Source: Geobacter metallireducens GS-15 (lineage in GTDB: Bacteria > Desulfobacterota > Desulfuromonadia > Geobacterales > Geobacteraceae). Taken from it: 32,000 nt of DNA. This document shows, in pieces, positions 22,010-31,097 of the stretch. Made by a program: the position numbers and the translations under genes. The DNA lies in contig NC_007517.1 in NCBI RefSeq assembly GCF_000012925.1, positions 390,001 through 422,000 on the forward strand, written 5' to 3'. Below the pieces are notes generated by a model, which saw nothing but the letters and a program-made list of their open reading frames with translations, searched no databases and was not told where the DNA came from. The first letter of the stretch is position 1, and every line of letters starts with the position of its first letter.

Positions 22010-22309
22010 ATGACAGAGTACCCTCTCCCCCTTTTTATCCTCAATCTCATCCTCACCCTTGTCGATGCCGCCATCGGCTACCACGTGGCGCCGATGATCA
22101 TGCGCCGCTTCACCCCCGACCCGGAGACGGCGGAGCTGTCGGTGCGGGGGATGCGGACCATGCTCGGCGGGGTGGTGGCTCTCTACATGTTTTTCAACTG
22201 TCTCGGGTACTTCCGGCAGAACGGCGTCATGCTCATGGTAGTGACCGCCGTCGTGGTGGTGGATATGGTGGCGCAGTTGGTGGTGCGGCGAAAGATCGGG
22301 AAGGGGTAG
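22010..22309 (+). CDS. Small (99 aa) membrane protein, unknown function
   Basis: The ATG lies 6 nt after the ftsK stop. Three hydrophobic segments. It is followed by a terminator. Confidence 0.55.
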   Translation: MTEYPLPLFILNLILTLVDAAIGYHVAPMIMRRFTPDPETAELSVRGMRTMLGGVVALYMFFNCLGYFRQNGVMLMVVTAVVVVDMVAQLVVRRKIGKG

Positions 22310-22398: not shown

Positions 22399-23187
22399 CT
22401 ACTCCTCCAGCCTCCCCAAGATCCGCAGGAGACCGTCGAGGATGGTGAGGGGGTGGGGTGGACAGCCGGGGATGTAGAGGTCGATGGGGATGAGGCCGTC
22501 GGCGCCGTTGTGAACATCGGGGGAGTCGATGAAGGGACCACCGTTGATGGCGCAGGCCCCGGCGGCGATGGCGATTTTCGGCTCGGGGATCGCCTCCCAG
22601 GTCTTGAGGAGGGCGAGGTGCATGTTCTCGGTAACCGGGCCGGTGATGAAGATGCCGTCGGCATGGCGGGGGGAGGCAACGAACTGGATGCCGAAGCGCC
22701 CCAGGTCAAAGCCGACGGTGGAGAGGACGTTGGTGTCGGCCTCGCAGGCGTTGCACCCCCCTGCCGAGACCTCGCGGAGCTTGAGGGAGTGGCTGAAGAG
22801 GAATTGTCGCGTCGCGTCCAGGGGGGGGGCGAGCCTCCGGACCTCTCCGGACCGGACGATGAGGTCCTCCCGCCGGTTAACGGCCAGCCGGTGATCGCCA
22901 GTGAAAGAGATGGCGCCGTGGGGGCAGGCGCCGGCGCATTCAGGGCAGAAGAGGCATTTCCCCATGTCGAGGGCGAGGGTTTTCCCGGTCCCCGGTCCCT
23001 GGTCCCCGGTCCCGGCCGTTATGGCGCCATGAGGACAGGCGTTGGCACAGTCGGCGCACCCGCCGGGACACATTTCCGGATCCAGGAAGGGGGCCCCCCG
23101 GAAGAGTTCCGGCAGTTGCGCCGGCCCAGCGGGGTAGGCGATGGTTCGGTGTCCCTGGTGACGTCTGGCAAAGAGTGCCTTGAGCAT
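22399..23187 (-). CDS. Fusion of a 2x[4Fe-4S] ferredoxin module (HyfH/HycF/NuoI-like) to a NuoB/HyfI/HycG-type small subunit
   Basis: N-terminal half: CPGGCADCANACP and CLFCPECAGACP. C-terminal half: the NuoB-type cluster ligands GGCNACE, GACAINGG and IPGCPPHP. GGAGG lies 7 nt upstream of ATG 23187. Confidence 0.85.
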   Translation of the reverse strand: MLKALFARRHQGHRTIAYPAGPAQLPELFRGAPFLDPEMCPGGCADCANACPHGAITAGTGDQGPGTGKTLALDMGKCLFCPECAGACPHGAISFTGDHRLAVNRREDLIVRSGEVRRLAPPLDATRQFLFSHSLKLREVSAGGCNACEADTNVLSTVGFDLGRFGIQFVASPRHADGIFITGPVTENMHLALLKTWEAIPEPKIAIAAGACAINGGPFIDSPDVHNGADGLIPIDLYIPGCPPHPLTILDGLLRILGRLEE

Positions 23188-23210: not shown

Positions 23211-24041
23211 CTATTCCGCTGCGGCCCCGCTATAGCCGAGTTTTACGGAGATGGTTTCGGCGGCTTTCTGGGCCAGGGGGACCAGTTCTGCGGCGACGCG
23301 CTCGTCGGAGAACCTCATGGTCGGCCCTGAGATGATGACCGCCCCGACCGTTTCAGTCCGGTAGTCGCGGATGGGGGCAGCCACCCCCCGGACTCCGATT
23401 TCAAGCTCCTCGTTGTCGATGGCGTAGCCGGCGGCGGCGATTTCCTTCAGGTGCTCCCGGAGCCGGGTGGCGTCGGTGATGGTGTTGGGAGTGAAGGGGA
23501 CCAGTTCCTTGCGGGCCAGGTAACGCTCAAGCTTCGGTTCGGAGAGGGAAGCGAGCATCACCTTCCCGGCGGCGGTGCAGTAAGCGGGCAGCCGGGAACC
23601 GAGTCGGGAGACGACCCGGACCGTGGCACGGCTTTCGACCCCGTAGAGGTAGATGCTCAGGTTTTCCTTAAGGATGGAAACGTAAGCGGTTTCATCGCAT
23701 TCCCTGACCAATTCCTCAAGAACCGGTTTTGCGTAGGGGAGGAGCGCCATCTGGCGGATCATGGTCTGGCGGATCTCAAGGGTTTTGAGTCCGAGCCGGT
23801 AGTTGCCGGTGACCCGGTTCTGTTCCACGTACCCCCGGGCCTCCAGGGTGGCCAGGAGCCGGAATACGTTGTTCTTGTGGAGCCTGAGCCGCTTTGCCAG
23901 TTCGGTTACGCCGAGCTCGGACACCCCTTCTCCGTGGAACTGCTCCAGGAGATCGAGGGCGTGGGAGACGGCAAGAATCATGTAATCGGATTTGTCTTTT
24001 TTCTGCACGGTGAGCCTCTGTCGGGTGGAGTGAAAAAGCAA
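23211..24041 (-). CDS. IclR-family transcriptional regulator embedded in the hyf-like operon
   Basis: N-terminal wHTH (ILAVSHALDLLEQFHGEGVSELGVTELAKRLRLHKNNVFRLLATLEARGYVEQ) plus an IclR-type effector-binding domain. The start is ambiguous: TTG 24041 (track), GTG 24008 (AGAGG 6 nt upstream; my preference) or ATG 23981. Confidence 0.9.
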   Translation of the reverse strand: MLFHSTRQRLTVQKKDKSDYMILAVSHALDLLEQFHGEGVSELGVTELAKRLRLHKNNVFRLLATLEARGYVEQNRVTGNYRLGLKTLEIRQTMIRQMALLPYAKPVLEELVRECDETAYVSILKENLSIYLYGVESRATVRVVSRLGSRLPAYCTAAGKVMLASLSEPKLERYLARKELVPFTPNTITDATRLREHLKEIAAAGYAIDNEELEIGVRGVAAPIRDYRTETVGAVIISGPTMRFSDERVAAELVPLAQKAAETISVKLGYSGAAAE

Positions 24042-24055
24042 ACCCGTCTCTTATA

Positions 24056-25564
24056 TCACAAATCGAACCCGCAGTAGGAGAGATTAAAACTCTTGTTGCA
24101 GAGGGGGAAGTCGGAAATCTGCTGATTCCGCAGGGCCAGGGCGAGTCCGGTCCAGTTGTGGAACGACGGGTCGACCACCTTGTAGCGGGCAAAACGGCCG
24201 GTGCCGTCGGTGATGGCAACGTGGCAGATCTCACCCCGCCACCCCTCGGTGAGAGCCACGGCCACGCTGTCCGGCGCAGGGGTGGCGGTATTCGTCACAG
24301 GAGGGCCGGCCGGCAACTGGCGGAGTTGCTCCGCTACGAAGTGGAGGGAGGCCTCCGCCTCGCGCCAGCGGACATGGGCCCGGGCAAAGACGTCACCGTT
24401 TTCCTCAACAGCCACGGCCACCGGACTCACGCCGTAGATGCCGAAGGGGGTATCCCGCCGCACGTCCCGGTCGATACCGCATGCCCGGGCCGCCGGACCC
24501 ACGAGGCCGATCTCCCGGGCCGTCTCCTGACTCACCTTTCCTGTCCCCTCGAAGCGGGCCATGACCGACTGGGTGTCCCAGAGGAGCCCCACCGCATTTT
24601 CCAGATCGTCGCTCGCGGCGGCGAGCCGATCGAGGAGCTCGCCCGCCTGCCGTTCGCCCACGTCGAAACCGACCCCGCCGGGGCGTACGATACCCCTGCC
24701 GAAACGGCTTCCACAGATATGGGCCGTCATGTTGAGGAAATCCCCCCTGATCCGGCCGCAGAAGGAGGCGGTGGGAAGATAGGCCACATCCCCGGCCAGT
24801 GCCCCCAGGTCGCCGGTGTGGTTGGCGAGCCGTTCCAGTTCCAGGGAGATGGCCCGGATGATCTCGGCCCGGGCCGACGGAACCGTCCCCCCGAGCGCCT
24901 CCATGACCATGGCATAGGCCAGGGTGTGGCCGATGGTGGTGTCGCCGGCGATGGTCTCCATCTGGAAGAGGGTTTTCGGGTGGGGGCCCTTCAGGATGCC
25001 CTCCTCAACCCCCCGGTGCTGGTAGCCGAGGGCAATCTCCAGGCTGAAGACCTCTTCGCCGTGGCACTGGAAGCGGAAATGCCCCGGCTCGATGATCCCT
25101 GCGTGGACCGGTCCCACCGCCACCTCGTGGATCTCCTCCCCCTCCACCCGGTAGTAGTCGGTGTCACCCGCCACTTTCCCGCCTAAACCTTTACGTGACG
25201 GCATGAAGGGGTGGTGGAACCGGACCGGCTTGGGCCAGGGGTGGGCCTCGGGGGTGATGCCGCACTGTTCGGCGATCTCCCGCTCGAAAAGGTGGAGTTG
25301 GGGGACGAGACGGCAGATGGAGGGAAAGGCCATTCCCGCCTCGGTTCGCATGAGCCCCAGAAGCCCGTCGTTGGGGGCGGCCATGAGGCACCAGAGGGTG
25401 GCGCCGGCGTCGGTGGGGACCCCGAAACAGGAGGCGACCCGCCATCCACGGTCGGTGGCGTCGATAATATCCTGGAGGAACTGTTCGAGGGGAAGGAGCG
25501 GCACCGAGGCCACCGGCACCGCCTCTCCGTTGCGCAGGCAGGTGAGGGAGAAGGTGCGGGTCAC
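24056..25564 (-). CDS. NuoC-NuoD / HycE / HyfG-like large subunit lacking the [NiFe]-binding cysteine pairs (Ehr-type)
   Basis: The GTG start at 25564 overlaps the upstream stop (GTGA). The 925-aa track ORF is an out-of-frame read-through into the HyfF-like gene. Hallmarks: FEREIAEQCGI (NuoC-like), GPVHAGIIEPGHFRF and LGYQHRG. The L1 position reads ETIAGDTTIGH instead of CGxCxxxH. The C-terminus reads SDFPLCNKSFNLSYCGFDL instead of DPCxxCxxR. Confidence 0.9.
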   Translation of the reverse strand: MTRTFSLTCLRNGEAVPVASVPLLPLEQFLQDIIDATDRGWRVASCFGVPTDAGATLWCLMAAPNDGLLGLMRTEAGMAFPSICRLVPQLHLFEREIAEQCGITPEAHPWPKPVRFHHPFMPSRKGLGGKVAGDTDYYRVEGEEIHEVAVGPVHAGIIEPGHFRFQCHGEEVFSLEIALGYQHRGVEEGILKGPHPKTLFQMETIAGDTTIGHTLAYAMVMEALGGTVPSARAEIIRAISLELERLANHTGDLGALAGDVAYLPTASFCGRIRGDFLNMTAHICGSRFGRGIVRPGGVGFDVGERQAGELLDRLAAASDDLENAVGLLWDTQSVMARFEGTGKVSQETAREIGLVGPAARACGIDRDVRRDTPFGIYGVSPVAVAVEENGDVFARAHVRWREAEASLHFVAEQLRQLPAGPPVTNTATPAPDSVAVALTEGWRGEICHVAITDGTGRFARYKVVDPSFHNWTGLALALRNQQISDFPLCNKSFNLSYCGFDL

Positions 25565-26994
25565 GGCACGTTTCCTCCTAATAGGGCCGCTCCTTCCGTA
25601 ATGAGGCGGCTGAGTGGTTCCGGTATCCAGATACCGAGCATGAGGACGACTCCCATAAGAATGAGCGGCGGCACCACCGTGAGGAAGCGGTCCCGGTAAC
25701 CGGTATGTTCGATGCGGCTCGATTCCCCCATCACCACCGGCAGGACCGTGCGCGCCATGCCGAGGAAAATGGCGGCCAGAAAAAAGAGGATGAGACCGCC
25801 GATCCACTCTCCTCCTTGGGTCATGGCGCTGGAGATGATGGAGAATTCGCTCACGAAGAGGCCGAAGGGGGGAGAGCCGGTGACGGCGAAGAACCCGGCC
25901 AGGAAGAGCCCTCCCGACCAGGGGAGACGCCGCAGTGCTCCCCGCACCTGCTCGCACCGTTTGCTGTTGTAGGAACGGTGGATGTTGGCGGCGGCCAGGA
26001 AGAGGACCCCCTTGGTGAGGCTGTTGTTCACCAGATGGAGGAGTGCCCCGGCCAGAGCCCCTTTGCCGAGCCCCAGGGCCACGGCCAGGATCCCCACATG
26101 CTCCACGCTGGAGTAGGCGAGCATCCGCTTGAAGTCGGCCTGGCGTGCCATGAAGACGGCGGCCGTGGCCATGGAGAGGAGGCCCATGAGGACAAGGGCG
26201 TCCCGGTGGAAGGTCGTCCCGTTGGCTGCCACGCAGACCTGGTAGGCCCGCAGGAGCCCCACGAAGGAGCAGGTCACGAGCCCTCCGGCCAGGAGCCCCC
26301 CCACGAGTCCGGGCGCTTCGCCGTAGGCGTCGGGCTTCCAGGTGTGGAGCGGCGCGAGCCCCATCTTGGTCCCGTAGCCCACGAGGAGAAACACGAAAGC
26401 CGCCTTGAGCCAGGCGGGGGAGAGGAGCCGCGCGTTCGCCACCAGGGGTTCCAGGAGAAGCGTCGGTTCGATCCGGGCCACCACGGTGGAGTAGGCCAGG
26501 AAGAGGAGCCCCAGGAGCGCCAGGGCGATCCCCACGGAGCAGATGAGCATGTACTTCCAGGTGGCCTCGATGGAGCGGGCGTTGCGGTTGAAGTAGAGGA
26601 GGGGGGTCATGGTGAGGGTGGTCGTCTCGATGGCCACCCAGAGGAGCCCCAGGTGGTGGGCAAAGGCCACGAGCGTCATGGCCGAAAGGCAGACCGGTAG
26701 CATGGCGCAGAGGAGGCGGTTCGGCCGTTCCCGGCGGTAGGCGAGATATTCCACGGCATAGAGCCCGGATGCGAAAAAGAGAAGGCTCACGGAGAGGAGT
26801 ACGAGCTTCCCGATGGCGTCCAGGTGGAGCCACATCCCCACCGAAGGGGATGTGGGGGTGAGTGCCGCCTCGATCGTCAGGGCCAGGTGGAGCGTCCCGA
26901 CGACGGGAAGCACCCAGGGACGGCTCCGGTCAGAAGGGATGAGCCAGGCCGTGATGGCGCCCAGAAGCGGTATGAGGAGGATGCCGGTAATCAT
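25561..26994 (-). CDS. NuoN/NuoM / HyfF-like antiporter-type membrane subunit
   Basis: 477 aa and polytopic, with typical complex I / Mrp antiporter-like sequence (…VEHVGILAVALGLG…, …GLAPLHTWKPDAYGEAP…). Confidence 0.9.
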   Translation of the reverse strand: MITGILLIPLLGAITAWLIPSDRSRPWVLPVVGTLHLALTIEAALTPTSPSVGMWLHLDAIGKLVLLSVSLLFFASGLYAVEYLAYRRERPNRLLCAMLPVCLSAMTLVAFAHHLGLLWVAIETTTLTMTPLLYFNRNARSIEATWKYMLICSVGIALALLGLLFLAYSTVVARIEPTLLLEPLVANARLLSPAWLKAAFVFLLVGYGTKMGLAPLHTWKPDAYGEAPGLVGGLLAGGLVTCSFVGLLRAYQVCVAANGTTFHRDALVLMGLLSMATAAVFMARQADFKRMLAYSSVEHVGILAVALGLGKGALAGALLHLVNNSLTKGVLFLAAANIHRSYNSKRCEQVRGALRRLPWSGGLFLAGFFAVTGSPPFGLFVSEFSIISSAMTQGGEWIGGLILFFLAAIFLGMARTVLPVVMGESSRIEHTGYRDRFLTVVPPLILMGVVLMLGIWIPEPLSRLITEGAALLGGNVP

Positions 26995-26995
26995 G

Positions 26996-27634
26996 CTAGT
27001 CCCTGAGGGTGGTGAGCCGCGACGTGTCGATGGACGAGAACTCGCGGCTGATCTGGTTGATGATGATCCCCATGACGAAGATGCCGACGATGAGGTCCAG
27101 CAGGACCCCCGCCTCCACCATGACTGGCATCGCCTCGGTCAGGAGGAGTCCAAAGAGGAAGATACCGTTTTCCAGCATCAGGTAACCGATTACCTGAGAG
27201 ATGGCTTTACGCCGGGTCACCAGCACGATGAAGCCGGTGAGGAGCGTGGCGATGGCCGCCGGCACGAAGAGGAGCCCCTGGTGCTCCGGAGCCAGGGGGA
27301 GGCGGGCGGCGAAGACAAAGGAGAGCCCCGTCGTGATGGCGCCGATGAGAAGCGTCGGCACATACCCCAGGTAGGGCTCCATCTCCCGGGATATCCGGGC
27401 CCGGACGATGGCGCCGGTCAGAAGCCACGGGATGATGATTCCCTTTGCCAGGATGAGGCCGCCGGTAATGACCACCAGGTGCCAGGAGAACGAGTGGACG
27501 AGGATCGGGAGGATGCCGAGGATGACCCCTTGGATGGCCACGGCGCGGATCGCCACGGCCAGGCGCCCCGAACCGAGGGCCGCGAAGTTGATGAGCATCA
27601 CGAGGACGATGAGCTGGTCCACCAGGGAAGTCAT
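26996..27634 (-). CDS. HyfE-like small polytopic membrane subunit
   Basis: 212 aa with about 6-7 TM segments. Size and position (between the HyfC-like and HyfF-like genes) match E. coli hyfE. The gap to its neighbours is 1-3 nt. Confidence 0.8.
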   Translation of the reverse strand: MTSLVDQLIVLVMLINFAALGSGRLAVAIRAVAIQGVILGILPILVHSFSWHLVVITGGLILAKGIIIPWLLTGAIVRARISREMEPYLGYVPTLLIGAITTGLSFVFAARLPLAPEHQGLLFVPAAIATLLTGFIVLVTRRKAISQVIGYLMLENGIFLFGLLLTEAMPVMVEAGVLLDLIVGIFVMGIIINQISREFSSIDTSRLTTLRD

Positions 27635-27637
27635 GGT

Positions 27638-28546
27638 CTACCTCAGCACCAGGAGCAGCGAAAACGCCGCCAGGATGCAGGCCGCCGCCAGCATCTGGGG
27701 GACCTTGGGGAGCCGCAGCCGTGCCATGACCGATTCCACCATGCCGATCCCCACGGCCAGCATCATCATGGCGATCACGAAGAGGACCCAGTCCACCACG
27801 GGGATGCCGGTGGCATAGGGGAGGGCGATGTCGGTGAACAGGGCACCCAGCACGAAGAGTTTCAGGGCCGCCCCGTAGAGGATGGCGCCGAAGAGGGGGC
27901 CGCTGTGGTCGAGCACCATCACCTCGTGGATCATGGTCAGTTCCAGGTGGGTGGTGGGGTCGTCGAAAGGGACCCGGCAGTTCTCGGCCAGGAGCACGAT
28001 GAAGAGGCTTCCCACCAGCAGGAGGAGCGATGCGCCGGCCGAAAGCCAGGAGGTGGCGGCAGTCCCGGTCAGCATGGGGGTCAGGGAGAGGGAGCCGGAG
28101 AGCCGTGCCAGCACCGCCAGGGAGAAGAAGAGGGCCGGCTCGGCCAGGCAGGCGAAGGTGGCCTCCCGGGCCGCCCCCATCCCCTCGAAGCTGGAACCGG
28201 TATCCAGGGCCGCCGCCGTGGTGCAGAAGCGGGCCAGCCCGAAGAGATAGGCGAAGAGGATCATGTCGCCGCTGAAAGAGAGAGGGGGGCGGTGCTCCCC
28301 GAGGGGGATCAGGAGCGAGGCCACAAGCGTTGCCGCCAGGCCCGCCACTGGTCCCGCCCGGAAGACCCAGCTCGTGGTTTCGCTGAAGACCGACCCCTTG
28401 CGCACGAGCTTTGCCAGGTCGTAGTACGCTTGAAAAAGCGGTGGACCGGTGCGGCCTGCAAAGATGGCCTTGGTCCGGTTGATCACCCCGAGCAGCAGCG
28501 GCGGCATGAGCAGGGTAATCAGGATATGGATAACGGCGTCGACCAT
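27638..28546 (-). CDS. NuoH / HycD / HyfC-like membrane subunit
   Basis: 302 aa. The N-terminal ...GVINRTKAIFAGRTGPPLFQAYYDLAKLVRKG is the conserved NuoH/HycD loop. AGGAG lies upstream. Confidence 0.9.
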   Translation of the reverse strand: MVDAVIHILITLLMPPLLLGVINRTKAIFAGRTGPPLFQAYYDLAKLVRKGSVFSETTSWVFRAGPVAGLAATLVASLLIPLGEHRPPLSFSGDMILFAYLFGLARFCTTAAALDTGSSFEGMGAAREATFACLAEPALFFSLAVLARLSGSLSLTPMLTGTAATSWLSAGASLLLLVGSLFIVLLAENCRVPFDDPTTHLELTMIHEVMVLDHSGPLFGAILYGAALKLFVLGALFTDIALPYATGIPVVDWVLFVIAMMMLAVGIGMVESVMARLRLPKVPQMLAAACILAAFSLLLVLR

Positions 28547-28561: not shown

Positions 28562-30571
28562 TTAATAGGCCCACGCCAGCAAGAGCGCCAGCGTCACGAA
28601 GATGTAGAGGATATAAAGGTGGAGCCGGCCGTGCTGGAGCTTGCGGGCCAGAGAGAACCTCCGGTCCATGGCCGAGAGGAGCGGCGTGATGACCAGTTCC
28701 AGTACCGCTTCGGGAACATGGCTCGAAAAGGCGCTTTTCCCCGGGAAGAGGCCCTGAACCTTGGGCGGGTGGACCCGGGGGCGGAGCACCGCGGCGAATA
28801 GGTTCACGAACATCTCTGCAAAGGAAGAGGCGGTGTACTGCATCCGGACAGTGGGACGGGCAAAGCCGCAGCCCCAGGTGCCGACTCTCCCCCGAGGTTG
28901 ATCCGTTACCCGCTTCCAGAGCCAGGCGCCGATGCCGAGAATCGCCAGAAGGAGGATGAGCCCCATGAGGGTAATCCAGCCAAAGGGCGCCGCATCCGCC
29001 AGCCGGACGCCGGCAAAGGGGAGCTGGGGGCTCCAGGCAAAGAGGGCCGGCTCCAGAAAGCGTGGGAGTGCCACGGGGAGGAGGCCGATGGCTGCGCAGA
29101 GTATGGCAAGGAGCATCATGGGGCCCCGCATGGCCCACCCCGGTTCGTGGCACCCGGCCGCGTCGGACGACCGGGGTAACCCCAGGAAGACCGTGCCGAA
29201 TACCTTCACGAAGCAGAGGACCGCCATCCCTCCCACCATGGCCAGGGCCGGCGCCGCCAGCCCCAGCAGGGGGGCCGCGGCCCCCTTTTCCTGCACGAGG
29301 CCGGAGAAAAAGCCGAGATAGACGAGAAGCTCACTCACAAAGCCGTTCAGGGGGGGGAGTCCGCAAATGGCCACGGCGCCGGTGAGAAAGAGGGCCGCGG
29401 TCCAGGGCATCCGTCGGCCCAGCCCGCCGAGGCTGTCGATCTCCCGGGTCCCAGCCTCGTGAATTACCGCACCGGCCCCGAGGAAGAGGAGGGACTTGAA
29501 AAGGGCGTGATTCAGGATATGGAGAAGCGCCCCCCCGAGCCCGAGGACCACCAGGAGCGGCAGTCCCGCTCCCCTGCCGATGAGGGCAACGCCGAGCCCC
29601 ATGACGATGATGCCGATGTTTTCGATGCTGTGGTAGGCCAGGAGCCGCTTCAGGTCGTGCTGTCCCACGGCAAAGGCAACCCCGAGGATTCCCGACACAA
29701 TTCCCGCCATAAGAAGAACCATCCCCCACCAGGGCGGGACCACTCCGAAGAAGGAGAGGATGCGGACCATGCCGTAGATTCCCATCTTGATGAGGACTCC
29801 CGACATGAGGGCCGACACGTGGCTCGGTGCGCTGGCATGGGCGCCCGGGAGCCAGACGTGAAGCGGCATCACCCCTGCCTTGAGGCCAAAGCCCAGGAGA
29901 GCGGTCACGAAAATGGCGGCCCCAAGGGGAGTTGTTCCGTCCAGCGCCGTTGTCGCAGGAAATGAAAAGGAACCGGCAGTCGCTTTTAGCAGGGAGAAGC
30001 AGGCGAAGAGGGTGAGGGTGCTTGCGTGGGTTGCCACGAGATAGATGAGGGATGCGTCTCGAACCTCCTGCTCCAGATCGTCGGTGGCGAGGGCAAAGTA
30101 GGCGGAAAGGGCCATGATCTCCCAGAAGATGAGAAAAAGGACTCCGTTCCGGGCCAGGGGGACCAATGCCAGGGAAGCGGCGAGGACGCCGAAGAAAAAG
30201 GTGAGCCGCGGTGCCGTGCGGGGGTGGTGGCTGGCGGGCCAGTAGCCGATGCCGTACACGGCGCAGCAGGCGCTGACGATGAAGACGGGGAGGAGGAAGA
30301 AGGCGGAGAGCGGGTCGATGCCGGCCTCAAGGGGGCCGAAGGGAAGCGAGCTTACGAGGGTGTAGGAGACGGTCCGTTCAGTAAAGAGCGTTGCCAGGGC
30401 ACCGATGATTCCCAGGATGGAGCCGAGAACGACGGTGAGAGAGGCGCATTTCTGCCCCCAGTCCAGCTTCTTGGGGAGAAAAAGGCCCGGAATGCCCGAC
30501 GCGCCGATCAGGAGCGCGCCGGCTATGACCAGGCTGACAGGATTGTCAGGCCCTGCCGTTGATGCTTCCAT
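28562..30571 (-). CDS. NuoL / MrpA / HyfB-like antiporter-type membrane subunit
   Basis: The preferred start is ATG 30571 (GGAGA 7 nt upstream), giving 669 aa. The track start at 30634 adds a Cys/Arg-rich 21 aa with no RBS. Typical motifs: WEIMALSAY and LLAYHSIENIG. Confidence 0.9.
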   Translation of the reverse strand: MEASTAGPDNPVSLVIAGALLIGASGIPGLFLPKKLDWGQKCASLTVVLGSILGIIGALATLFTERTVSYTLVSSLPFGPLEAGIDPLSAFFLLPVFIVSACCAVYGIGYWPASHHPRTAPRLTFFFGVLAASLALVPLARNGVLFLIFWEIMALSAYFALATDDLEQEVRDASLIYLVATHASTLTLFACFSLLKATAGSFSFPATTALDGTTPLGAAIFVTALLGFGLKAGVMPLHVWLPGAHASAPSHVSALMSGVLIKMGIYGMVRILSFFGVVPPWWGMVLLMAGIVSGILGVAFAVGQHDLKRLLAYHSIENIGIIVMGLGVALIGRGAGLPLLVVLGLGGALLHILNHALFKSLLFLGAGAVIHEAGTREIDSLGGLGRRMPWTAALFLTGAVAICGLPPLNGFVSELLVYLGFFSGLVQEKGAAAPLLGLAAPALAMVGGMAVLCFVKVFGTVFLGLPRSSDAAGCHEPGWAMRGPMMLLAILCAAIGLLPVALPRFLEPALFAWSPQLPFAGVRLADAAPFGWITLMGLILLLAILGIGAWLWKRVTDQPRGRVGTWGCGFARPTVRMQYTASSFAEMFVNLFAAVLRPRVHPPKVQGLFPGKSAFSSHVPEAVLELVITPLLSAMDRRFSLARKLQHGRLHLYILYIFVTLALLLAWAY

Positions 30572-30657
30572 GGATGGTCTCCGGGAGAGGCAGAAGCGCT
30601 GTGTGTGGTCGCAGCACTCGCGGTGTGACGCCATTTTACTGGTGCGTACCTTTGCGG

Positions 30658-30686
30658 ACTATACGTCCTTAGGGAAAATGCGTCAA
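30658..30686 (-). promoter_or_regulatory. Candidate sigma70 promoter of the hyf-like (Ehr-type) operon
   Basis: On the minus strand: TTGACG (30686-30681), a 17-nt spacer, then TATAGT (30663-30658). A second overlapping TTGACT lies 7 nt upstream. The predicted leader is about 80 nt to ATG 30571. Confidence 0.5.
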
Positions 30687-31097
30687 TAGTCAAGTGGAGT
30701 CTGCCGCTGACAATGGTGGCGCGCAATGGCGGGTGAGACAAGGTTTTGCTTAACGGGTTTCGTTGAGATGGATTTGCGATAATTCCTGTTGACAAGAGGG
30801 GAGGAATCGGATTACTTATAGATCTGTACGACCTCATATTTGTCCATTGGAAATACCCCCGGCGTTCTTTCATTCCTTTACAAATCAGGCGCTCCACTCA
30901 AAACCATAATCAACGTGCGTCGCTACGCCTATTCGGAAAAGTTACGACATTCGATTACATAAGAGCACAGATTCCACGTATCCACAAACAGGTGCGTTTC
31001 CCGCTTTCGTTACGTTCAGTTATCCGATGAATGACCCCGACAATGAGCCCGCCATCATTCAGCAACTATCCCGTTGCGCCCGTCCACAGGAGAACCG

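Follow-up and report, generated by a model that had tools for sequence, protein, structure and literature searches.

The Ehr complex of Geobacter metallireducens combines conserved redox and ion-pump residues with a large subunit that lacks the NiFe-ligating cysteines

The stretch of DNA analysed here, which we call the window, comprises 32,000 nucleotides of Geobacter metallireducens GS-15 (contig NC_007517.1, positions 390,001 to 422,000); all coordinates below are positions within it. A gene on its minus strand encodes a protein related to the large subunits that group 4 [NiFe] hydrogenases have, in which all four cysteines that would hold the NiFe centre are replaced by other residues. We consider it very probable that this gene is the ehrL of the previously described Ehr complex (Ech/energy-converting-hydrogenase-related), encoded in the operon ehrA-B-C-D-L-(iclR)-S, and that the complex is not a hydrogenase but a conserved redox and ion machine. 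Ehr was first described in Geobacter by Coppi (2005), and a further description is that of Marreiros et al. (2013), as these reports are cited in PMC3569383, PMC4758237 and PMC13194489. The absence of the NiFe cysteines is the defining trait of the family, and HydDB was built to exclude Ehr as a non-hydrogenase (PMC5037454). The cysteine loss in EhrL is therefore the rediscovery of a published family trait and not a new one. The parts of the gene that carry the argument are the following.

24056..25564, minus strand: ehrL, Ehr large subunit, 502 amino acids (open reading frame and translation).
24926..24958, minus strand: L1-equivalent segment E203-T-I-A206-G-D208-T209-T-I-G-H213, standing for R-x-C-G-x-C-x-x-x-H.
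24059..24085, minus strand: L2-equivalent C-terminus N494-L-S496-Y-C498-G499-F-D-L502, standing for D-P-C-x-x-C-x-D-R.
25070..25114, minus strand: beta1-beta2 loop GPVHAGIIEPGHFRF, hydrogenase-type, in which Glu159 corresponds to HycE Glu193.

The ligand positions were mapped by a phmmer alignment of EhrL to Escherichia coli HycE (7z0s_E) and by aligning it in MAFFT with HycE, HyfG and NuoCD of E. coli K-12, and the two agree. Conservation was read from 88 Ehr-type representatives, taken from clusters at ≤50% identity and 35-60% identical to EhrL, and from a second set of 120 close EhrL homologues. At the first cysteine pair, Ala206 stands at HycE Cys241 and Thr209 at HycE Cys244; the representatives have alanine (43), serine (31) or cysteine (9) at the former position, and serine (40) or threonine (35) at the latter. 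At the second pair, Ser496 stands at HycE Cys531 and Gly499 at HycE Cys534, with serine in 85 and glycine in all 88 of the representatives. Two aspartates within the same segments are also widely kept, Asp208 in 82/88 and Asp501 in 87/88, and among the 120 close homologues the motifs E-T-x-A-G-D-T-T-x-G-H and SDFPLCNKSFNLSYCG(F)DL are near-invariant. Five positions, Gly180, Asp208, Asp465, Ser496 and Gly499, are ≥85% conserved in Ehr and carry a residue that occurs in none of six true hydrogenases (0/6), and these provide the novel, Ehr-specific set of conserved pocket residues that a preliminary description of the gene had considered possible.

That description had also placed Ala and Thr at the first cysteine pair and, by hand alignment, Ser and Gly at the C-terminal pair, and the alignments to HycE return the same four residues. 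The motifs it quoted (FEREIAEQCGI, GPVHAGIIEPGHFRF, LGYQHRG, ETIAGDTTIGH at codons 24958-24926 and the C-terminal SDFPLCNKSFNLSYCGFDL followed by the stop) are all found in the translation. Four cysteines at the L1 and L2 positions would contradict the loss, and the HycE alignments place none there. With all four ligand positions replaced in both the HMMER and the MAFFT alignments, its view that a canonical NiFe(CN)2CO centre cannot be bound stands, and so does its view of a re-purposed pocket, the replacement residues being strongly conserved among the 88 representatives. The hydrogenase signature consists of four cysteines, in RxCGxCxxxH and DPCxxCxx(H/R), and EhrL has 0/4 of them. Since Ala, Thr, Ser and Gly occupy the four ligand positions, no NiFe(CN)2CO centre is expected to assemble in EhrL; judged by its sequence, the protein cannot ligate the canonical centre and is not a hydrogenase.

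Two other cysteines, C489 and C498, remain near the C-terminus and are spaced Cx8C, not CxxC, as previously noted. They align to HycE Ile524 and Ser533 and are invariant among the 120 close homologues. A family-wide metal or persulfide site at these residues was considered and rejected, because C489 is a cysteine in just 58/88 and C498 in just 46/88 representatives. The very end of the protein, Leu502 (24059-24061, followed by the stop codon at 24056-24058), aligns to HycE Arg537, the site at which the HycI endopeptidase cleaves following Ni insertion. In the alignment NuoCD, too, stops here. The 120 close homologues all finish at the equivalent of Leu502, and a C-terminal maturation extension was found in none of them (0/120).

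Four relatives retain CGxC and CxxC together with the DFPL(I/V)NKSF motif of Ehr. In a rough neighbour-joining tree, built without support values, these four-cysteine proteins branch off basally to the Ehr radiation. Such a branching would agree with the NiFe site having been lost once, in descent from a group-4f-like ancestor, and it is only indicative of this.

Along its entire length EhrL shows 100% identity with ABB30614.1 of G. metallireducens GS-15 (UniRef100_Q39YR0), the annotated Ehr large subunit, and this identity makes the gene ehrL; EhrS, the partner subunit discussed below, is likewise identical to ABB30612.1. Translation of ehrL starts at a GTG at 25564 that overlaps the TGA stop of ehrD as GTGA (25564-25561), and an AGGAGGA ribosome-binding site lies ∼7 nt upstream of it; the overlap suggests that ehrD and ehrL are translationally coupled. 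A longer in-frame open reading frame, 24056-26833 (925 amino acids), was rejected as a high-GC read-through artefact that overlaps ehrD, the homologues and the deposited protein beginning at 25564. The protein is a fusion of a NuoC-like N-terminal domain with a HycE/NuoD-like domain, matched in Pfam by Complex1_49kDa (5.3e-39) and by the NuoC-like Complex1_30kDa (2e-4, slightly below the gathering score). Its best PDB match by phmmer is HycE (7z0s_E, E = 5.7e-44), with MbhL and Nqo4 next and MbsL also detectable (6u8y_L, 1e-20). An AlphaFold2 (AF2) model of EhrL (pLDDT 93.8, pTM 0.94) is again closest to HycE 7z0s_E in Foldseek (TM 0.89), E. coli NuoCD being next (∼0.83). As modelled, EhrL has the fold shared by group-4 [NiFe]-hydrogenase large subunits and NuoCD.

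Around the altered ligand positions, much of what serves catalysis in HycE is still recognisable. The functional residues of HycE include Asp192 and Glu193 in the beta1-beta2 loop, Arg478, Asp529 and Ser283 in the canopy, and His284, Glu437 and Arg395 in the proton path (PMC9474812). In EhrL these become Ile158/Glu159, Arg443/Asn494/Asn248 and His249/Glu402/Arg360, respectively. Among the representatives Glu159 is conserved in 81, Arg443 in 82, His249 in 84 and Glu402 in 83, while Arg360 is conserved in 77/88 and replaced by lysine in 9 more. The only clear change in the relay and canopy is that of the canopy aspartate, which is asparagine in 55/88 and still aspartate in 20/88. By these alignments a hydrogenase-type proton relay to the pocket is kept in EhrL; the proximity of the residues to one another within the pocket is taken from homology to HycE alone.

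The iron-sulfur partner of EhrL is encoded by the last gene of the operon.

22399..23187, minus strand: ehrS, with Pfam Fer4_7 and Oxidored_q6.

Residues 1-113 of EhrS form a HycF-like 2x[4Fe-4S] domain with eight cysteines (7z0s_F, 5.7e-17), and residues 131-262 a HycG/NuoB-like proximal-cluster domain (7z0s_G, 5.9e-32). The NuoB-like partner had been described as retaining all four ligands of the proximal [4Fe-4S] cluster, and this proved correct: they are C145-x-x-C148, C212 and C242 (in GCPP), and the alignment to HycG residues 34-165 contains no gaps, so that the proximal-cluster loop is of equal length in both. In carrying GGC145-N-A-C148, a CxxC motif, EhrS resembles HycG, as opposed to NuoB with its tandem CC (ligands of cluster N2). 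Each of the 12 Fe-S cysteines of EhrS is kept in ≥38 of 41 family members. The fusion of HycF- and HycG-type parts into one protein is general across the related loci that include ehrS (L004-L083).

The membrane arm is encoded by the first four genes of the operon.

28562..30634, minus strand: ehrA, antiporter-like subunit resembling HyfB/HycC/NuoL, extended at the C-terminus by an ND3-like part, open reading frame of 690 amino acids.
27638..28546, minus strand: ehrB, HycD/HyfC/NuoH-like membrane anchor, 302 amino acids, Pfam NADHdh 2.6e-32.
26996..27634, minus strand: ehrC, HyfE-like small membrane subunit, 212 amino acids.
25561..26994, minus strand: ehrD, HyfF-like antiporter-like subunit, 477 amino acids, Proton_antipo_M 1.4e-40.

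EhrA matches the NCBIfam model of hydrogenase 4 subunit B at 6.9e-174. As its homology to HyfB begins only at residue 34, the true start of ehrA is probably Met22 of the open reading frame. The Glu/Lys pair of transmembrane helices 5 and 7, E172/K252, is present in 57/57 members, this pair being lost in HycC itself, and E172/K252, H372, K380, E435 and C589 of the ND3 loop are each kept in ≥55/57. The E-channel of EhrB is equally well preserved, with R106, E128, E136, E188, E202 and E208 in 35/35 members and Y100 in 30/35. EhrC matches the NCBIfam model for the membrane subunit of hydrogenase 4 at 8.8e-23 and, below the gathering score, Pfam Oxidored_q2 (7e-5). For EhrD the top NCBIfam match, hydrogenase 4 subunit F, is under cutoff; its E123/K210 pair, K328 and E383 are conserved. 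Taken over the E-channel and the antiporter-like subunits, 96-100% of members keep the pump residues.

When each GTDB species was represented by one genome, relatives turned up in at least 595 of these species genomes; the best 80 loci were inspected. Among these the gene order ehrA-B-C-D-L-S is the rule, frequently with a second ehrA upstream. They come from Geobacterales, Planctomycetota, Verrucomicrobiota, Acidobacteriota (Geothrix, Thermoanaerobaculia), Spirochaetota, Gemmatimonadota, Desulfovibrionaceae, Lentisphaerae, Chlamydiota, Cloacimonadaceae, Riflebacteria and others, and according to published surveys roughly half of the Nitrospirales genomes have Ehr. Clustering of the open reading frames of ≥110 amino acids in the 80 loci yielded no recurrent partner gene beyond the six ehr genes, the rest being antisense reading frames or fragments. 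Two of the loci (L008, 13332-20566, and L042, 2562-9983) contain a second, divergent ehr cluster adjoining the first. The large subunits of these second clusters, 38-39% identical and ∼530 amino acids long, carry SGD(T/S)(T/S)...NxSYSG and are also without the NiFe cysteines; at least two Ehr subfamilies co-occur, and presumably they are not redundant.

On this evidence Ehr is a complete machine of the complex I superfamily: it has a three-cluster wire, a hydrogenase-type proton relay, an E-channel, coupling loops and a pair of competent antiporter-like subunits. Its sole systematic change is that a conserved set of small or polar residues, together with two new carboxylates, has taken the place of the NiFe ligands, and, as judged by conservation, strong purifying selection acts on everything else in the machine in many phyla. 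At each tested marker save the metal ligands it looks hydrogenase-like, not NuoD-like or MBS-like (MBS being the archaeal sulfane reductase). Ehr is probably a selected, ferredoxin-linked, ion-translocating redox complex and not a decayed hydrogenase. Because no partner oxidoreductase gene is conserved beside the cluster, we infer a soluble donor: a low-potential carrier, most likely ferredoxin by analogy, would dock at the HycF-like domain, electrons would run from there to the proximal cluster, and a proton-coupled redox step at the remodelled pocket would couple to ion translocation. The complex may also operate in reverse, the membrane potential then driving the reduction of ferredoxin.

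Menaquinone is in use in Geobacter, which also both forms and consumes reduced ferredoxin. Our preferred guess for the electron acceptor in this genus, offered tentatively, is the menaquinone/menaquinol pool, which would be reached at a site unlike that of NuoD. Ehr would then possibly, though with less than an even chance, be a ferredoxin:menaquinone oxidoreductase or its potential-driven reverse, that is, a minimal complex-I-like enzyme without NuoEFG in which the quinone head occupies the former NiFe pocket. Its architecture and coupling elements are common to complex I, Gly180 is NuoD-like (Gly246 in NuoCD, Phe in hydrogenases), and the proton-delivery path is kept, as the protonation of a quinone needs. 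For the G. sulfurreducens genes GSU0739-0745 a literature search returned only a genome note and two proteomics papers. In the proteomics of formate-grown cells all Ehr subunits were detected and were more abundant, the enzymes of the citric acid cycle and of phosphoenolpyruvate synthesis being the least abundant. The higher abundance of Ehr on formate would fit a reverse operation, in which the menaquinone link may run backwards and supply reduced ferredoxin when the flux through the citric acid cycle is low.

Several points weigh against this picture. The ferredoxin partner is suggested only by the analogy to Ech and Mbh and by the lack of conserved neighbours. Papers that place Ehr near the group 4f hydrogenases, without CxxC motifs, call its function unknown (PMC10284858, 2023; PMC12342949, 2025), and a literature search returned neither a structure nor enzymology of any Ehr, nor any Ehr experiment. 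As to the quinone site, NuoD-type His and Tyr, one of the pocket linings envisaged in the preliminary description, are not there: the quinone ligands His224 and Tyr273 of NuoCD (H38 and Y87 in Thermus thermophilus) align to Ile158 and Gly207 of EhrL, and the CxxC of EhrS is in place of the tandem CC. The NCBIfam equivalog models of NuoD and NuoB all score far under cutoff, those of NuoD reaching 182 bits against a cutoff of 360 (NF004739) and 145 against 459 (TIGR01962) on EhrL. Furthermore, Ehr-type complexes have been reported in Riflemargulisbacteria, where no full quinone biosynthesis pathway was found, and also in bacteria of the Candidate Phyla Radiation (CPR).

The distribution would be explained if the pocket were instead a new proton-coupled catalytic site whose acceptor is not H+, a quinone or sulfane sulfur, or if the complex were a potential-driven ferredoxin-reducing machine, a proposal to which we give no more than a modest chance. 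According to it, Asp208, Asp465 and Gly180, which are particular to Ehr, would form the pocket along with Ser496, Gly499, Ser/Thr209 and the conserved hydrogenase-type residues Glu159, His213 and Arg443. The pocket may hold a metal other than NiFe with O/N ligands, or a small polar substrate, and its electrons would come from the proximal [4Fe-4S] cluster. On this view Ehr would represent a widespread class of reductases that depend on ferredoxin and pump ions, or else of ferredoxin reducers driven by the membrane potential. If true, this would explain the presence of Ehr in bacteria that have no quinones.

A complex without any net acceptor, acting as a redox-gated cation or proton antiporter or pump that senses the ferredoxin pool, would also account for Ehr in organisms that have neither quinones nor respiratory chains; to our knowledge, respiratory chains are generally absent from CPR bacteria. 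Homology reveals no recognisable acceptor site, and the Mrp/Hyf-like membrane arm with its two complete antiporter-like subunits would suit such a role. However, the full substrate-proton relay and the Ehr-specific carboxylates of the pocket suggest that chemistry takes place there, and we know of no purely regulatory Fe-S chain in the complex I superfamily that could serve as a precedent, so that we consider a sensor of this kind unlikely.

Geobacter species can reduce S0, and an inorganic or organic sulfur species such as polysulfide might be reduced directly at the proximal [4Fe-4S] cluster, the old NiFe pocket serving as a chamber only, as in MBS (Mbx). MBS is the one characterised Cys-depleted relative of the group-4 hydrogenases (PMC7684303), and its large subunit MbsL is, as mentioned, a detectable homologue of EhrL. 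Nevertheless, catalysis in MBS needs a shortened MbsJ loop, so that one iron of the cluster has no Cys ligand, and it also needs the proton path and the beta1-beta2 Glu to be absent (PMC7684303), whereas EhrS aligns to HycG gap-free with four cysteines and EhrL keeps Glu159 and the entire relay. With MbsA-G/Mrp small subunits also missing from the ehr operon, an MBS-like reaction seems very unlikely.

The authors of the proteomics study suggested a link between Ehr and the production of H2 from formate, and the retained hydrogenase-type proton relay could be read in the same direction, with Ehr still turning over H2 at a non-canonical site, for example together with a formate dehydrogenase (FDH) as in formate hydrogenlyase (FHL). 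This would have to be reconciled with the loss of all four ligand positions, two of them fixed as near-invariant Ser496 and Gly499, and with the lack of a C-terminal maturation extension. FDH and hyp genes are absent beside the cluster, both here and in the 80 loci; since no FDH recurs among the flanking reading frames, an FDH-Ehr link finds no support in the gene neighbourhoods. In addition, H2 did not raise Ehr expression in Nitrospira moscoviensis (PMC12342949). A hydrogen-converting Ehr is thus highly improbable.

The published view that the Ehr of G. sulfurreducens KN400 is non-functional and drifting, in other words a hydrogenase relic under relaxed selection (PMC13194489, 2026), comes with a report of missense mutations in ehrA-2 (KN400_0713) and ehrB (KN400_0718) in every line after 17 years of evolution on anodes, which the authors put down to drift. 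It is hardly credible in view of the six-gene synteny in the 80 inspected loci, the spread of relatives over at least 595 species genomes, the near-invariance of the Fe-S, E-channel, antiporter and replacement pocket residues, and the fact that Ehr proteins are made in the cell and change in abundance with the electron donor. Decay of the genes into pseudogenes was likewise rejected on conservation. The KN400 mutation hotspots in ehrA-2 and ehrB have an alternative to drift, namely adaptive change in, or loss of, an energy-coupling complex.

In the window the operon runs on the minus strand in the order ehrA, ehrB, ehrC, ehrD, ehrL, an IclR-family regulator and ehrS (30634-22399). Apart from the ehrD/ehrL overlap, the ehr genes are spaced by 1-15 nt. 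The regulator gene interrupts the ehr series.

23211..24041, minus strand: IclR-family transcriptional regulator, Pfam IclR_C 2.5e-48 and HTH_IclR.

It is separated from its ehrL and ehrS neighbours by 14 and 23 nt and lies on the same strand, and it is probably co-transcribed with them. The top NCBIfam matches of the protein, BhcR and PcaR/PobR-type, are each below cutoff. Among the 80 related loci an IclR gene between ehrL and ehrS was found elsewhere only in one, from an uncultured Geobacter (L004, 11570-12382); in the remaining loci that include ehrS, it is ehrS that follows directly after ehrL, and the insertion is lineage-specific. Consecutive accession numbers suggest that the insertion is also common to G. 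hydrogenophilus and G. grbiciae. The effector of the inserted regulator could offer a clue to the conditions that call for Ehr.

Between the operon and the divergently oriented rho lies an intergenic region of ∼460 bp with lower GC (30635-31097), and towards ftsK the operon is convergent. Rfam had zero matches anywhere in the window, and so the ∼460-bp ehrA leader contains no known riboswitch. The sole repeat found in that region is a weak 11-nt inverted repeat (30626-30636 / 30675-30685) spanning the first ATG of the ehrA reading frame. The other genes of the window are of a housekeeping kind (IleRS, LspA, PBP1A, AsmA-like, MarR, SDR, PlsC, RNase J, FtsK and Rho), and hyp, FDH or ferredoxin genes were not found in it. 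Just past ftsK, a plus-strand reading frame of 99 amino acids (22010-22309) gives a partial MatE-family match (profile positions 76-151 of 161); it may encode a small membrane protein, or else be a piece of an efflux transporter.

The conservation data argue against the published non-functional view, and they nominate Asp208, Asp465, Gly180, Ser496 and Glu159 as residues for mutagenesis. Naming the acceptor would fill a gap in models of ferredoxin and energy metabolism in Geobacter and in many anaerobes, and would shed light on the conversion of the NiFe pocket in the course of complex I evolution.

Among known systems, the closest is the Ehr of G. sulfurreducens (GSU0739-0745), which is the same cluster, with subunits EhrA, B, C, D, L and S and no NiFe cysteines. 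It differs in that G. sulfurreducens, like many other loci, has ehrA-1 and ehrA-2, whereas the G. metallireducens window has one ehrA, and in the IclR-family gene that G. metallireducens carries between ehrL and ehrS. The E. coli hydrogenase-3/4 large subunits HycE and HyfG (FHL, 7Z0S) and the group 4f hydrogenases resemble EhrL in the fused NuoC-like domain, the loop Glu, the canopy Arg and the His/Glu/Arg path, and the likeness to FHL and Hyf extends to the CxxC proximal-cluster motif of the partner and to the Hyf-like membrane subunits. Relative to HycE, EhrL has its four ligands replaced, Asn494 in place of the canopy Asp529, and no HycI-type extension. Relative to FHL, Ehr is without the FDH or HycB module and has HycF and HycG fused; these two parts, which form one polypeptide in Ehr, are separate subunits in FHL, Hyf, Ech and complex I.

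NuoD of complex I (NuoCD, Nqo4) is likewise without NiFe cysteines, has the same aligned C-terminal end as EhrL and shares Gly180 as Gly246 of NuoCD, but the loop of EhrL is of the hydrogenase type (IEPGHF) and the Ehr operon has no NuoA/J/K/E/F/G set. The MBS of Pyrococcus furiosus (6U8Y), a respiratory complex that derives from group-4 hydrogenases, has, like Ehr, lost NiFe binding while keeping a three-cluster wire and ion pumping. MbsL, however, keeps 2/4 cysteines and has neither the loop Glu nor the proton path, and MbsJ, with its shortened loop, has a three-Cys cluster, whereas in Ehr both the Glu and the proton path persist, the cluster is held by four Cys, and the Mrp small subunits are missing.

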